64,000 nucleotides of DNA, taken from assembly GCA_902801985.1 (NCBI GenBank), contig CADCKD010000017.1, positions 10,162-74,161 on the forward strand. Direction: 5' to 3'. Positions within the stretch are counted from its first letter, which is position 1. Each line of letters begins with the position of its first letter. The position numbers and the translations under genes were made by a program. Source of the stretch: an uncultured bacterium (GTDB lineage: Bacteria; Cyanobacteriota; Vampirovibrionia; Gastranaerophilales; Gastranaerophilaceae). The notes below the pieces were generated by a model. The model saw only the letters and a list, made by a program, of their open reading frames with translations, made no database searches and was not told the DNA's origin. This document shows positions 55,075-61,510 of this stretch, in pieces.

Positions 55075-55611
55075 ATGATTAAAATACTTGCAAGTCTTAT
55101 ACCAAATAAAATACTCCGAAGAAATTTCAGACAATTTTGCTATACAATCCAAATAAGATGGGAAGCAGAATATATAGGGAAAAACCTGTATTGCGGGAAA
55201 TTTTCAACGGTAAATAGAAAAACAACAATAAAAAATGACGTAAGATTAAACGGTCTGCACATTAGCGGAAACGGGAAAGTAATTATAGGCAACAACAGTA
55301 TACTGGGATTTGATACATTAATTATTTCAGACAACCACAATTATAAAGGCAAAGCACTGCCATATGATAACACATTTATAGAAAAAACAACAATTATAGA
55401 AGATTTTGTTTGGATAGGAGCAAGAGCTATACTGCTGCCAGGGGCTAAAATAGGAGAGGGTGCAATTGTACAAGCAGGGGCTGTAGTACATGGAGAAATC
55501 CCACCACTTGCAATCGCCGGCGGAAATCCCGCAAGGGTCTTTAGCTGGAGAGAAAAAGACAAATATTATGCTCTAAAAAAGCAATATAAAACTAATTCAA
55601 CGAAATGCTAA
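55075..55611 (+). CDS. hexapeptide-repeat (left-handed beta-helix) acetyltransferase
   Basis: VWIGARAILLPGAKIGEGAIVQAGAVVHGEIPPLAIAGGNPARV. Confidence 0.8.
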   Translation: MIKILASLIPNKILRRNFRQFCYTIQIRWEAEYIGKNLYCGKFSTVNRKTTIKNDVRLNGLHISGNGKVIIGNNSILGFDTLIISDNHNYKGKALPYDNTFIEKTTIIEDFVWIGARAILLPGAKIGEGAIVQAGAVVHGEIPPLAIAGGNPARVFSWREKDKYYALKKQYKTNSTKC

Positions 55612-56902
55612 AATTGCCGTTATAAAAACGAATATTCAAATTTAAAGTTTCATTTTTATAACCGGCAGGCGGCGGATTGTATCTTGTAGTTGAGTTTAAA
55701 GCAGCATATACAGCATCATTTAAAGTTACATTAGATGATTGTTTTGTGAATGCCCTATTTATGAGCCTGCCTGATGAATCTAATTTAAAAGACAAGGAGC
55801 AATCTCCGTCACCAACAACACGGGCAAAATCAATTTTTTTGCCTATTGTATTTCTTAGACCAACCTTGTAATTCGCAAGCTCTTGTTTTAATGCGGCAGT
55901 GTCAACAGTTTTTACAGGAGTTGCCGCGGCATTAGACTGCGTAGTTTGATGAGCGGCAGATGAGTTGCCGCCAGACGGTCTTATAGCCGGAACAGTAGTA
56001 TTACTCGAAGCAGAAGATGTTTTATTTGTCGTTGAAGAACTTATTGCAGGCTTCTTATTTGAAGTTTGTGATGAGGTCGTCTGCTGCATATTATTTGTGT
56101 ATTTTTTGTTGTTATTTATAATACTATTCAAATCTATACCGGAATTGCTTTTAGCGGGAGTTGTCTGATTTGATGTTTTTGGGGCCGTTGTTTTTGGTGC
56201 AGAAGAAGTCGATGTTTTTTGATTTTGCGTTGCAGTTTTTTTAGTTTGAGTAGTCTGTTTTGTAGTTTGTGCAGGTTTCTGTATTTGATTTGCAGTATTT
56301 TTATTAACCGCTTTTGAAGCTGCTGCAGGTTTTTGAGTAACTTGCGGTTTTGTTTGAACTGCAGGCTTTACCGTTGTTTGCTGCTTTGGTTGAGGTTTAA
56401 AAACCTGTTCTACAAGCTGAACTATTTTTTGCTCATTTTTTACTGGTTCAACTTTTGGAACAACAGCAGGAGCCGCAACAGGAGTATTATTCCAATATGA
56501 ATCAATTTCCGGAATATTTTCTATTTTTTCTACTTTTTGTATTTTTGCAGATTCTGCTTTTTTTGCATAAAATTCAGGGTCATAACCTATCCAGGTAACA
56601 TACATAGAAAGACCTATCAAACATAAAAAAATAACAGTGGAAACAGGGTCAAAAAACTTTTTTATACCGCTATAATCATAAGCAGGCTTTTCAACGGACT
56701 TTGATTTTGGTTGTTCTAATCTTTGAGTAGAAGTATGTAACTCAGTTTTTTTAGGGGTAGGTTTAATAACAATCTTTTGCTCAGGTTTTACCTCTTGTTC
56801 CTGAATTTTTGGAGTTGAAACTTCTTCAAACGTATCATTACCGCAATCACAATATTCCGGTTTTATTTCATATTCTGTTCCACATTCACTGCATTTATAC
56901 AT
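55592..56902 (-). CDS. zinc-ribbon / TM / Pro-Thr-Gln-rich / TonB-TolA C-terminal-like protein (operon gene 6)
   Basis: MYKCSECGTEYEIKPEYCDCG, one TM, a long low-complexity spacer, and the C-terminus YKVGLRNTIGKKI...CSLSFKLDSSGRLINRAF..SSN..LNDAVYAAL......NPPPAG. Confidence 0.7.
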   Translation of the reverse strand: MYKCSECGTEYEIKPEYCDCGNDTFEEVSTPKIQEQEVKPEQKIVIKPTPKKTELHTSTQRLEQPKSKSVEKPAYDYSGIKKFFDPVSTVIFLCLIGLSMYVTWIGYDPEFYAKKAESAKIQKVEKIENIPEIDSYWNNTPVAAPAVVPKVEPVKNEQKIVQLVEQVFKPQPKQQTTVKPAVQTKPQVTQKPAAASKAVNKNTANQIQKPAQTTKQTTQTKKTATQNQKTSTSSAPKTTAPKTSNQTTPAKSNSGIDLNSIINNNKKYTNNMQQTTSSQTSNKKPAISSSTTNKTSSASSNTTVPAIRPSGGNSSAAHQTTQSNAAATPVKTVDTAALKQELANYKVGLRNTIGKKIDFARVVGDGDCSLSFKLDSSGRLINRAFTKQSSNVTLNDAVYAALNSTTRYNPPPAGYKNETLNLNIRFYNGNFSISLN

Positions 56903-56903
56903 T

Positions 56904-57875
56904 TTATTTTATAACCTTTTCTACATCATTATAATCCTGAGGGGTAGAATACTTAGAACTTGTTGAAATTTTCCAAGCACCATAGGCTTCTACTATAGTC
57001 CTTTGGGTGCCCGCAGGATAATTCAAAATTGAACGTCCTTGATAGCTCCTTATAACAGGCGCAATATATTGAATAGCATAAGGAGTGTAACTTGAAGGCG
57101 TTGCATACGTTTTTACTTCGGTAATTTTACCATATTTGTCGACTTTGAAAGTATAATTAAACTTTGTTCCTTGAGGAATAGTCGGCAATTTTACATCACG
57201 CATAATCTGATTTTGCAAATTTGATCGCCATACATTCCAGGCAATTTCTTCTTCTTGTGCGGTCAAAACTTTTGGAGCCGGTGCCGGTTTAGAAGCAGTT
57301 TTAACAGGAGCTGCAACCGGTTTTGGAGCAGAAACGGTCTTAACAGGAACGACAGCTTTTACAGGCTCTGAAACAGTTTTAACCGGTTCTGAAACTACCG
57401 TAGGCTCTGTCTTTTTTGTTGTTTGCATATTTTTATTATTATCAACAATTTTTTGAACATCAATCGGAGCTGCAACCTTTGTACTATTTTTAGATGTTTC
57501 GACTTTAGGAATTTTTGTTTCTGTTTTTTGAACTTCGTACTTTGGCTCTGTCTTTTTGGTTGGTATTATACTTGTCACTACTTTTGCAACAGACGGAGTT
57601 TGGACTTTTTCCTGCTCTACTTGCGGCATTACATAATTAGAAGTTTCATACTCAACAACATTTACAACCTTGTTTGCTTCATTAACCGGTCCTGCAACCA
57701 TTTCCATCACAGGGATTTTTTCTTCCTCAATTTCGGACTCTTGAGTTGGAGCTATCGTGTAGTCAGAATTATAAACCAAAACAGACTTGTGCATCTTCGG
57801 TTTCATAACACAGATGCACAAAGTCGAAATGATTGCCAGTATAAGCAATATTTGTATTATTGTTCTATAACTCAT
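56904..57875 (-). CDS. TM / Pro-rich / TonB-TolA C-terminal-like protein (operon gene 5)
   Basis: N-terminal TM, repeats VSEPVKTVSEPVKAVVPVKTVSAPKPVAAPVKT, and the C-terminus WNVWRSNLQNQIMRDVKLP....FNYTFKVDKYGKITEV. Confidence 0.65.
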   Translation of the reverse strand: MSYRTIIQILLILAIISTLCICVMKPKMHKSVLVYNSDYTIAPTQESEIEEEKIPVMEMVAGPVNEANKVVNVVEYETSNYVMPQVEQEKVQTPSVAKVVTSIIPTKKTEPKYEVQKTETKIPKVETSKNSTKVAAPIDVQKIVDNNKNMQTTKKTEPTVVSEPVKTVSEPVKAVVPVKTVSAPKPVAAPVKTASKPAPAPKVLTAQEEEIAWNVWRSNLQNQIMRDVKLPTIPQGTKFNYTFKVDKYGKITEVKTYATPSSYTPYAIQYIAPVIRSYQGRSILNYPAGTQRTIVEAYGAWKISTSSKYSTPQDYNDVEKVIK

Positions 57876-61193: not shown

Positions 61194-61456
61194 CGTTCTT
61201 CTTCCATTTTTTGTTTGAATATCGTCTTTGTAGTTTGTTTTGTAGTTGTCATAGAACCATCATCATTGATTTTTATAAAATATTCCACAATATCTATTGT
61301 AAACGGTTTATGCATTTTAGGGTGAACTATACAAATTCCGGCACTTAATAATAGAGCCGCAACAGATAATATAACCCCGGAAACCTTTATAGGCATAAAC
61401 TTAAATAATAGAACAAGTCCTAAAATTATAAATAAAACTACTACCGCTAATAACAT
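61190..61456 (-). CDS. small two-TM protein (operon gene 1, 88 aa)
   Basis: AAGGAAG RBS before the ATG at 61456. ATGA stop/start overlap with gene 2. Its ICIVHPKMHKPF motif matches LCICVMKPKMHKSV of gene 5. Confidence 0.55.
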   Translation of the reverse strand: MLLAVVVLFIILGLVLLFKFMPIKVSGVILSVAALLLSAGICIVHPKMHKPFTIDIVEYFIKINDDGSMTTTKQTTKTIFKQKMEEER

Positions 61457-61481
61457 ATATACTTCCTTTTCCCTTGTTAGA

Positions 61482-61510
61482 ATTATACATTTAAAATAAC
61501 AGAAAACCAA
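61482..61510 (-). promoter_or_regulatory. sigma70 promoter of the six-gene operon (TTGGTT-17 nt-TATAAT on minus strand)
   Basis: Reverse complement of 61505-61510 is TTGGTT and of 61482-61487 is TATAAT. Lies between the alaS terminator and gene 1. Confidence 0.55.

Follow-up and report, generated by a model that had tools for sequence, protein, structure and literature searches.

RESULTS AND DISCUSSION

A six-gene operon downstream of alaS

The stretch of DNA that was analyzed (64,000 nucleotides, or 64 kb, of contig CADCKD010000017.1 from an uncultured bacterium of the Gastranaerophilaceae; referred to below as the window) carries a block of six tightly packed minus-strand genes, which we designated g1 to g6. 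An earlier note on this DNA had listed six minus-strand open reading frames (ORFs) at this site, and all of them were found, spanning 55592 to 61456 after correction of the g1 start. The genes encode, in order, a small membrane protein of 88 amino acids (aa) (g1, 61190-61456); an exported 343-aa protein with a TrbI/VirB10-type barrel (g2, 60162-61193); a membrane-anchored 221-aa vWA protein (g3, 59487-60152); a 532-aa protein with an FHA fold and eight hydrophobic segments (g4, 57875-59473); a 323-aa protein with a transmembrane (TM) segment, a linker, and a weakly TonB-like C-terminal domain (g5, 56904-57875); and a 436-aa protein with a zinc ribbon, a TM segment, a linker, and a TonB_2/TonB_C domain (g6, 55592-56902). 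A seventh gene, designated vwa7 (53867-54784, plus strand), encodes a secreted 305-aa vWA protein and is convergent to g6. The products of all seven co-inherited genes are envelope proteins. The domain types in the operon are known ones, but their combination is not that of any characterized system, and they are grouped around a membrane protein family (that of g4) without detectable relatives.

Every overlap and gap between the six genes was as the earlier note had claimed: g1 and g2 overlap by 4 nucleotides (nt; ATGA, 61190-61193), the next two junctions are gaps of 9 nt and 13 nt, g4 and g5 share 1 nt at 57875, and 1 nt (56903) separates g5 from g6. This geometry suggests translational coupling of g1 to g6. 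The two hydrophobic segments described for g1 were also recovered, but the start of the gene had to be moved. The ORF list had placed g1 at 61190-61510, beginning at a TTG codon. Because this TTG belongs to the proposed -35 box, of which position 61510 is the first base, and because the ATG at 61456 is preceded by a ribosome-binding site read from the sequence (AAGGAAG, 61468-61462, minus strand), g1 was taken to start at the ATG and to encode 88 aa. The gene caller also gives 88 aa for g1 in a nearly identical contig (L087).

The operon lies downstream of an alaS terminator, as had been proposed. The alaS gene, upstream of g1, ends at 61602, and its intrinsic terminator consists of an RNA hairpin at 61548-61584 (minus strand) followed by a U-rich tract at 61536-61547. 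The hairpin has a folding free energy of -23.4 kcal/mol (z = -6.9), and none of 200 shuffled sequences was as stable; the terminator is real. The case for a promoter belonging to the operon itself is different. The proposed hexamers and their spacing were present as read (61482-61510, minus strand: TTGGTT at 61510-61505, a 17-nt spacer, and TATAAT at 61487-61482), but there was no excess of such sites over shuffled sequence, with 33 promoter-like consensus matches found and 27.6 expected. The site was also absent from the output of a generic promoter scan. Because consensus matches are as common in shuffled sequence, the promoter upstream of g1 is plausible but unproven.

Conservation and distribution of the operon

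The distribution of the operon was evaluated with one genome per GTDB species. A relative of g4 was encoded in 517 species genomes, and the loci of the 80 best of these were compared, with flanks of up to 10 kb on each side where the contig allowed; orthologues were located with tblastn and by clustering all ORFs against one another. Across these 80 loci, g4 was 65 to 79% identical. Nearly all of the genomes are titled Gastranaerophilales, Melainabacteria, "Cyanobacteria bacterium UBA," or bacterium, and the few that carry other names are probably mistitled. More than 1,100 close relatives of g4 were found, all of them unnamed or annotated as "hypothetical," and the organisms stated were Candidatus Gastranaerophilales/Melainabacteria from gut and rumen metagenomes. 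The family is narrow, with 116 representatives in 1.84 billion clusters, about ten of which are full length. In public records the products of the operon go by the names "hypothetical," "TrbI/VirB10 family," or "glycine zipper family," and a literature search turned up no paper that deals with the operon or with these proteins of Melainabacteria.

Orthologues of g4 were present in all 80 loci, those of g3 in 79, g5 in 76, g2 in 74, and g6 in 64. The short g1 gene was detected in at least 41 of the 80 loci by clustering and in 73 of 86 loci by tblastn. The order and orientation of g1 to g6 were the same in nearly every one of the 80 loci, with the medians at fixed offsets, so that the conservation of the six-gene order in relatives held while the flanks differed. 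Same-order orthologues in 64 to 80 of the 80 other genomes (g1 counted separately) place the six ORFs beyond chance. An orthologue of vwa7 followed g6, in convergent orientation, in 40 of the 80 loci and was also present in three further contigs (L087, L092, and L001). Apart from g1 to g6 and vwa7, no gene family occurred in more than 11 of the 80 loci. The flanks are therefore unrelated among the loci, and the block is a self-contained unit.

In many relatives vwa7 adjoins g6 directly. In the window, an Xre-type helix-turn-helix gene (minus strand) and a hexapeptide-repeat acetyltransferase gene (plus strand) lie between them at 54786-55611, and the acetyltransferase gene overlaps the g6 stop codon by 20 nt. 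Both genes are missing between g6 and vwa7 in L087, which encodes an identical g4, and they are therefore a recent insertion.

More distant loci retained parts of the block. At 44% g4 identity, L092 has g2, g3, g4, g5, and g6 together with a convergent vwa7. L091 (42%) has g3, g4, and a g6-like protein of 251 aa with a zinc ribbon, a TM segment, and a TonB_2 domain. L003 (38%) has g3, g4, and a g5-like protein, with a hydrogenase gene upstream. The most divergent locus, L006 (28%), encodes an unrelated exported protein, a g3 homologue that is a lipoprotein, a g4 variant that lacks the FHA domain and was a singleton in the cluster search, and, after these, a 640-aa protein (11306-13228) followed by a g5-like protein. 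In the 640-aa protein an FHA domain occurs together with a double zinc ribbon and a kinase-like domain, and a TM segment lies at the C terminus; this points to an evolutionary link with FHA/kinase signaling modules. Because L091, L003, and L006 all keep g3, g4, and one TonB-like protein adjacent, these three proteins are the constant core of the system. An FHA domain and a zinc ribbon were always present somewhere in the system across the variants, and g2 was absent from the three reduced ones.

g2, an exported protein with a VirB10-type barrel

The g2 protein has a signal peptide (aa 1-22, ending SYA|G), an alpha/beta N-terminal domain (aa 23-126), a disordered linker (aa 128-161), and a beta-barrel (aa 163-343). 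The pLDDT (predicted local distance difference test) score of its AlphaFold2 (AF2) model was 68 overall. When the model was compared with the PDB by Foldseek, the top 20 matches were C-terminal domains of the VirB10 family (best E = 8.9e-6), and the matches included Xanthomonas VirB10, TrwE, CagY, TraF of pKM101, and ComB10. The sequence comparisons were less uniform across orthologues. The TrbI family (PF03743) was matched by 11 of 59 g2 orthologues, and its cutoff of 35 bits was reached by five of seven g2 sequences that were checked (six orthologues plus the L092 counterpart); the g2 of the window fell below the Pfam reporting level for PF03743, and whole g2 retrieved nothing in PDB sequence searches, either as a single protein or as a profile. 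Taken together, the Pfam matches in orthologues and the fold of the predicted model place the C-terminal domain in the TrbI/VirB10 family.

The earlier description of g2 as a Sec-exported protein with a TrbI/VirB10 barrel thus stands, but the glycine zipper that had been assigned to its C-terminal end is instead an insertion. A glycine-zipper helical hairpin occupies aa 263-319 (60237-60407, minus strand), before the last two strands of the barrel. Glycine-zipper Pfam families were subthreshold for the g2 of the window and were found in 15 to 23 of 59 orthologues. In one orthologue (P0217), positions 3 to 183 of the 188-position TrbI profile were collinear with aa 169-344; because the profile spans the hairpin collinearly, the hairpin lies inside the TrbI domain. 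In the pKM101 outer-membrane complex, this position is the site of the outer-membrane-spanning antenna of VirB10.

g4, a polytopic membrane protein with an FHA-fold domain

At the N terminus of g4 lies an FHA-fold domain (aa 1-95, nt 59189-59473); next come an unbroken helix (aa 123-188) and, by hydropathy, eight hydrophobic segments between aa 165 and 506. Its AF2 model had a pLDDT of 73 overall and about 80 for residues 1 to 95. The best Foldseek match of these residues in the PDB was FHA-1 of Rv1747 (TM-score of 0.78), and nearly all of the next hits were FHA domains with a probability of 1.0. The FHA family PF00498 was not detected by sequence in 10 diverse g4 homologues, and the consensus has GS in place of GR and no SxxH, so that the canonical phosphothreonine-binding residues are not conserved. 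The proposal of a possibly FHA-like N-terminal domain followed by at least eight TM segments was sustained as to fold and hydrophobic segments. The g4 FHA domain is probably a phospho-independent docking module, judging from its residues. Because an FHA fold is located there, the N terminus of g4 was assigned to the cytoplasm.

Columns invariant or at least 90% conserved among ten diverse homologues are found in TM5 and the following loop (TAPFLAYGVSNTLA.CFPEAAGWIR.SGLRFSP), in TM7 (IEFSMN), and in TM8 (VPTALL.AET). Residues E472, N476, and E508 are invariant, and E472 is in mid-membrane in TM7. The membrane part of g4 had no match in Pfam, PDB sequences, PDB folds, or BFVD, and PDB sequence searches with g4 retrieved nothing, whether it was used as a single protein or as a profile. 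A TolQ/ExbB-like stator was considered as an identity for g4 and rejected, as alignment to TolQ with hhalign gave a probability of 0.2%.

The TonB-like protein g6, the probably TonB-like g5, and the small protein g1

The stronger of the two TonB-like assignments is that of g6. This protein has a CxxC...CxC zinc ribbon (aa 1-28), a TM segment (aa 84-102), a linker rich in T, K, A, S, Q, and N, and a C-terminal domain (aa 327-436, nt 55595-55924). The four cysteines (C4, C7, C18, and C20) are invariant and make up a generic zinc ribbon, and because this ribbon precedes the TM segment, the N terminus of g6 was placed in the cytoplasm. The C-terminal domain scored 27.3 bits against TonB_2 (cutoff, 22), and among 49 orthologues TonB_2 was matched by all, TonB_C by 45, and TolA by 29. 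A g6 profile also matched Helicobacter pylori TonB in the PDB (6sly and 5lw8; E = 7e-4). These results confirm the zinc ribbon and the TonB/TolA-like domain that the earlier note had read in g6.

The g5 protein has the same general layout: a TM segment (aa 6-24) and a KPKMHK motif come first, then a linker rich in V, K, T, P, and E, and the C-terminal domain (aa 199-323, nt 56907-57281) is conserved. PDB sequence searches with g5 and g4 as single proteins retrieved nothing. A g5 profile retrieved 12 hits in the PDB, several of which were Escherichia coli TonB C-terminal domains (E = 0.2 to 1.3). Comparison of the C-terminal domains of g5 and g6 with hhalign gave a probability of 62% (E = 7.6e-5). 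Alignment of g5 with the E. coli TonB C-terminal domain gave 68.5% over 25 columns, in the beta1-beta2 hairpin; as a control, the bona fide g6 domain gave just 13.6% against the same E. coli TonB. The TM-spacer-C-terminal layout previously described for g5 was thus recovered; the matches to TonB-like domains are weak but agree with one another, and g5 is probably, though not provenly, TonB-like.

Linker lengths varied between species while the ends of the proteins were conserved: 131 to 360 aa in g5 and 101 to 431 aa in g6, the shortest coming from cut or masked contigs. Widely varying linkers between conserved ends are expected of periplasmic spacers. The spacers, which had been called Pro-rich, are not strongly so; both linkers are of low complexity, with 11% Pro in g5 and 8% in g6.

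The hydrophobic segments of g1 are at aa 2-20 and 26-43, separated by a cytoplasmic loop with two Lys residues and followed by a conserved tail (orthologue consensus, IC..P.MHKPF...DGSMTTTKQTT). A juxtamembrane motif, IC..(K)PxMHK(P/S)(F/V), is common to g1, after its second TM segment, and g5, after its single one. If the g5 N terminus is cytoplasmic, both copies of the motif are at the periplasmic face. This shared motif may mean that g1 and the anchor of g5 are paralogous, or that g1 and g5 bind the same site.

The vWA proteins g3 and vwa7

The g3 protein has a membrane anchor at aa 5-24, preceded by K3 and R4, and a vWA domain that scored 28.9 bits against Pfam VWA_2 (cutoff, 27). The DxSxS motif of its metal ion-dependent adhesion site (MIDAS; D44-x-S46-x-S48, nt 60009-60023) and the GT and GD residues are conserved across 79 orthologues, in agreement with the earlier call of a TM-anchored vWA domain with an intact MIDAS. 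The vWA domain is probably periplasmic because of the N-terminal K3/R4 and because the g3 homologue in L006 has a lipobox (LVSC). Lys20, within the anchor, is conserved in at least 95% of the 79 orthologues. This residue and Glu 472 and 508 in TM7/TM8 of g4 could form intramembrane charge pairs; however, E472 is kept even in L006, where a lipoprotein that has no TM segment stands in the place of g3.

The vwa7 protein has a signal peptide and a DxSxS MIDAS. It scored just under the cutoffs of Pfam VWA_2 and VWA_3 and had a weak TerY match.

Comparison with known envelope systems

Pfam, NCBIfam, PADLOC, and PDB searches gave domain-level hits alone, and the operon matched no characterized one. 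No ExbB/ExbD, TolQ/TolR, MotA/B, TolB, Pal, MoxR, DUF58, VirB4, VirD4, or other VirB gene was present in the 64-kb window (precomputed Pfam assignments), and no ExbBD/TolQR, ATPase, TolB/Pal, MoxR, or type IV secretion system (T4SS) gene was a recurrent neighbor in the 80 loci. The earlier claim that the operon has no motor or ATPase partner therefore holds for the operon and its flanks, up to 10 kb on each side where the contig allowed. A defense system was also considered and rejected; PADLOC hit none of g1 to g6, and the block belongs to the conserved portion of the chromosome. The earlier note had compared the operon with Tol-Pal, TonB-ExbBD, Bat/MoxR-vWA, and T4SS. Membership fails for each of them. 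The nearest analogue, the Agl-Glt machinery of Myxococcus, was not on that list.

Agl-Glt/Nfs of Myxococcus xanthus is the closest analogue by domain repertoire. Its GltG protein consists of an FHA domain, a transmembrane helix (TMH), and a TonB_C domain, and GltJ consists of a zinc ribbon, a GYF domain, a TMH, and a TonB C-terminal domain; GltF has 89 aa, and CglB is a vWA adhesin (PMC3169522, PMC11761067). GltG, GltJ, and CglB act jointly in a trans-envelope machine (PMC11761067; PMC3169522), the core of which comprises aglR/Q/S, gltC/D/E (TPR proteins), and gltG (PMC3169522). Like Agl-Glt, the operon encodes two single-pass inner-membrane proteins (g5 and g6) in which a long disordered linker precedes a TonB-type C-terminal domain, a cytoplasmic zinc ribbon on one of these TonB-type proteins (GltJ there, g6 here), an FHA domain at the cytoplasmic face (GltG there, g4 here), a vWA/MIDAS protein (CglB there, g3 and vwa7 here), and a small protein, with GltF at about 89 aa and g1 alike in size only. 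However, membership fails. Neither AglRQS nor the TPR proteins GltC/D/E/I nor the GltA/B/H/K barrels are encoded in the flanks; FHA is fused here to the eight-TM g4 rather than to a TonB-like protein; and the VirB10-like g2 has no counterpart in Glt. Pfam found no GYF domain in g6. When the g6 zinc ribbon was compared with that of GltJ, a PDB profile search found generic CxxC zinc knuckles and not the GltJ entry 7zok. Agl-Glt and the operon had no detectable sequence similarity beyond generic domains.

The likeness to TonB-ExbBD and Tol-Pal lies in the bona fide TonB_2/TonB_C domain of g6, with a weaker TolA_C match, and in the TM-spacer-C-terminal layout of g6 and probably g5. The differences are that the TM segments of g5 and g6 contain no His or SHLS, that there is no motor, TolB, or Pal in the window or flanks, that g6 has an additional zinc ribbon, and that g4 has no similarity to TolQ. 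Similarly, g2 resembles VirB10/TrbI proteins of T4SS (TraF of pKM101, CagY, and ComB10) in its family by Pfam and fold and in having a helical hairpin at the antenna position. It differs in having a cleavable signal peptide and an alpha/beta N-terminal domain rather than a cytoplasmic tail, an inner-membrane TM segment, and a Pro-rich region. Furthermore, the antenna of g2 is a glycine zipper, and no other T4SS gene is linked to it.

Two other systems share membrane-tethered vWA proteins with the operon. TMH-tethered vWA proteins encoded beside TolQ(R)-like motors have been proposed to be periplasmic force transducers (PMC12204202), and g3 is likewise an inner-membrane-tethered, putatively periplasmic vWA protein in a putative trans-envelope cluster. 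In contrast to these proteins, g3 is almost without a linker (about 15 residues from the TM segment to the vWA domain), has Lys20 and neither SHLS/His nor Asp in its TM segment, and has no tolQ neighbor; membership fails here too. Envelope operons of the Bat/MoxR-vWA type (aerotolerance) also encode vWA proteins that are anchored in the membrane, but no MoxR AAA+ ATPase, DUF58, or TPR protein BatC/E was found in g1 to g6 or their flanks.

A possible complex coupling the inner and outer membranes

The earlier note had proposed that the operon encodes a trans-envelope assembly of unknown function. The co-conservation of the genes and the domain calls support this proposal, with caveats, and the assembly itself is what we infer from them. 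In the explanation that we favor, and hold with about even confidence, g1 to g6 and probably vwa7 form a complex that couples the inner and outer membranes. An inner-membrane platform would be formed by g4, g1, and g3. The g5 and g6 proteins would be anchored in this platform and cross the periplasm on their flexible linkers, and their C-terminal domains would dock, in the manner of TonB, onto an oligomer of g2 associated with the outer membrane. Like the antennae of VirB10, the glycine-zipper helices of g2 may be inserted in the outer membrane, and g5 and g6 would provide the membrane anchor and linker that the VirB10-like g2 lacks. The periplasmic vWA domains of g3 and vwa7 would be metal-dependent binding modules, and the FHA domain of g4 and the zinc ribbon of g6 could serve as cytoplasmic docking sites that recruit cytoplasmic factors. 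Such an assembly would tether or gate an outer-membrane structure or pass force or a signal to it.

Several observations weigh against a coupling complex of this kind. No energy source for the assembly was identified in the window or flanks. The SHLS/His motif that couples TonB/TolA proteins to their motors, as defined in PMC12204202, is absent from the TM segments of g5 and g6, as it is from that of g3. Neither the C-terminal domain of g5 itself nor those of 51 orthologues matched Pfam, the glycine-zipper region of g2 was modeled with a pLDDT below 50, and the topology of g3, like that of g5, is ambiguous by the positive-inside rule. Because g2 is missing from L091, L003, and L006, the core does not require an outer-membrane partner. 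Finally, the organisms are known here from metagenome assemblies alone, and the literature search yielded no paper, and hence no phenotype, for the operon.

A bolder and, in our estimation, unlikely version of the coupling complex gives g4 the central role. It is conceivable that TonB/TolA-type transducers have in g4 an inner-membrane partner of a new kind, replacing the 5:2 motors of ExbBD/TolQR, and that g4 drives or holds two TonB-like arms, which in turn contact a glycine-zipper pore in the outer membrane that is VirB10-like and stands alone. With its membrane-embedded invariant E472 and E508, g4 might then harvest ion-motive force, or it might be an anchor whose regulation runs through the FHA domain.

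Alternative explanations

It is also possible, if improbable, that g4 is a transporter, flippase, or enzyme regulated via its FHA domain, as in Rv1747 and MviN-FhaA, with the other proteins serving as periplasmic accessories or a scaffold and nothing located at the outer membrane. The best structural match of the g4 FHA domain is to Rv1747, which is an ABC transporter; eight hydrophobic segments with the invariant E472, N476, and E508 would suit a transporter or enzyme; and the constant core of g3, g4, and one TonB-like gene does without g2. However, the membrane domain of g4 matches no transporter family by sequence or fold, and the canonical phosphothreonine-binding residues of its FHA domain are not conserved. 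Furthermore, g4 is obligatorily linked to TonB-type proteins with long linkers, the known relatives of which reach the outer membrane.

The parallel with Agl-Glt suggests a surface machinery of the Glt/Nfs type, whose task would be to export a vWA adhesin (vwa7 and/or g3), to present it at the cell surface, or to move it there, for adhesion or gliding-type motility, with g5 and g6 in the roles of GltG and GltJ and g2 as the outer-membrane platform. As the published accounts describe Agl-Glt (PMC11761067; PMC3169522; PMC9946355), the repertoires run parallel in the FHA domain, the zinc ribbon, the two TonB-type TMH proteins, the small TM protein, and the vWA MIDAS adhesin. The gene for the secreted vWA protein is also the commonest neighbor of the operon (40 of 80 loci). 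Nevertheless, we regard such a machinery as rather improbable. No AglRQS-like motor, GltC/D/E TPR protein, or GltA/B/H/K barrel is encoded in the flanks of any locus, the FHA domain is on a different protein, the GYF domain is lacking, and the zinc ribbon shows no similarity to that of GltJ in the PDB. In addition, flagellar and pilin genes are present in the same window.

A third alternative is an envelope signaling module of FHA, zinc ribbon, vWA, and kinase components, comparable to ArnA/ArnB (FHA and vWA), that would sense the state of the periplasm and relay it to the cytoplasm. The TerY vWA/phosphatase/kinase triad is a comparable signaling module, and vwa7 has its weak match to TerY. 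The 640-aa FHA/double zinc ribbon/kinase-like membrane protein encoded beside the g3 and g4 homologues in L006 would also fit such a module. The pairing of FHA and vWA domains is documented (PMC6509490; bioRxiv 10.64898/2026.01.23.701218). However, no kinase or phosphatase is encoded in the operon of the main clade or in its flanks, and the vWA domains are apparently periplasmic and so cannot be ligands of the FHA domain, which in any case is without GR and SxxH. The VirB10-like and TonB-like parts would also be left unexplained, and we consider a signaling module to have little chance of being correct.

That the operon is a degenerate remnant of a T4SS, a conjugation system, or a mobile element, as the TrbI/VirB10 family membership of g2 and the integrase and VapE-like genes upstream of alaS in L087 might suggest, is very improbable and was rejected on synteny, because no VirB4, VirD4, VirB6, VirB8, or VirB9 is encoded nearby in the 80 genomes, because the block or parts of it are kept in all 80 loci at varied chromosomal sites with g4 65 to 79% identical, which is not the pattern of an accessory element, and because PADLOC returned nothing for g1 to g6.

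Other features of the window

The genes upstream of alaS in L087 (683-4707) encode a VapE-like/NTPase protein, an HTH_17 protein, and a phage-type integrase and lie immediately next to alaS. They are probably part of a mobile element that is integrated past the window's right end.

Elsewhere in the window, flagellar genes (FliJ-like and the rod protein LlgE_F_G_D1) are located at about 33000-38600, beside a gene for a 474-aa protein without a Pfam hit, and a pilin gene is also present. The organism is probably flagellated. A ClpB-type AAA+ chaperone gene is found at 45896-48430. An ORF of 1401 aa at 20095-24300 (minus strand) would encode a giant protein and has no Pfam hit on record in a matching contig (L089). 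Two ORFs overlap on opposite strands, at 34325-35668 (plus strand, 447 aa) and 34516-35124 (minus strand, 202 aa), and one of them is presumably spurious.

Implications

To our knowledge, every characterized TonB/TolA-type transducer is coupled to a motor of the ExbBD/TolQR type. The TonB-type proteins described here are without the motif that binds the motor; the genes always linked to theirs encode an FHA protein with eight TM segments and no known relatives and a periplasmic vWA protein. The main clade adds a VirB10-like protein outside any T4SS. The analysis provides annotation for seven "hypothetical" genes, of which the central one, g4, has relatives in 517 species genomes. If g4 does act as a new inner-membrane partner for TonB/TolA-type transducers, the operon would represent a Tol/Ton-equivalent envelope system in Melainabacteria. 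If the products form one machine, they would constitute a second, independent example of the toolkit of FHA, zinc ribbon, TonB C-terminal, and vWA domains that is otherwise known from myxobacterial gliding, as well as a new way of joining the inner and outer membranes, in a sister lineage of Cyanobacteria that is host associated and poorly known.

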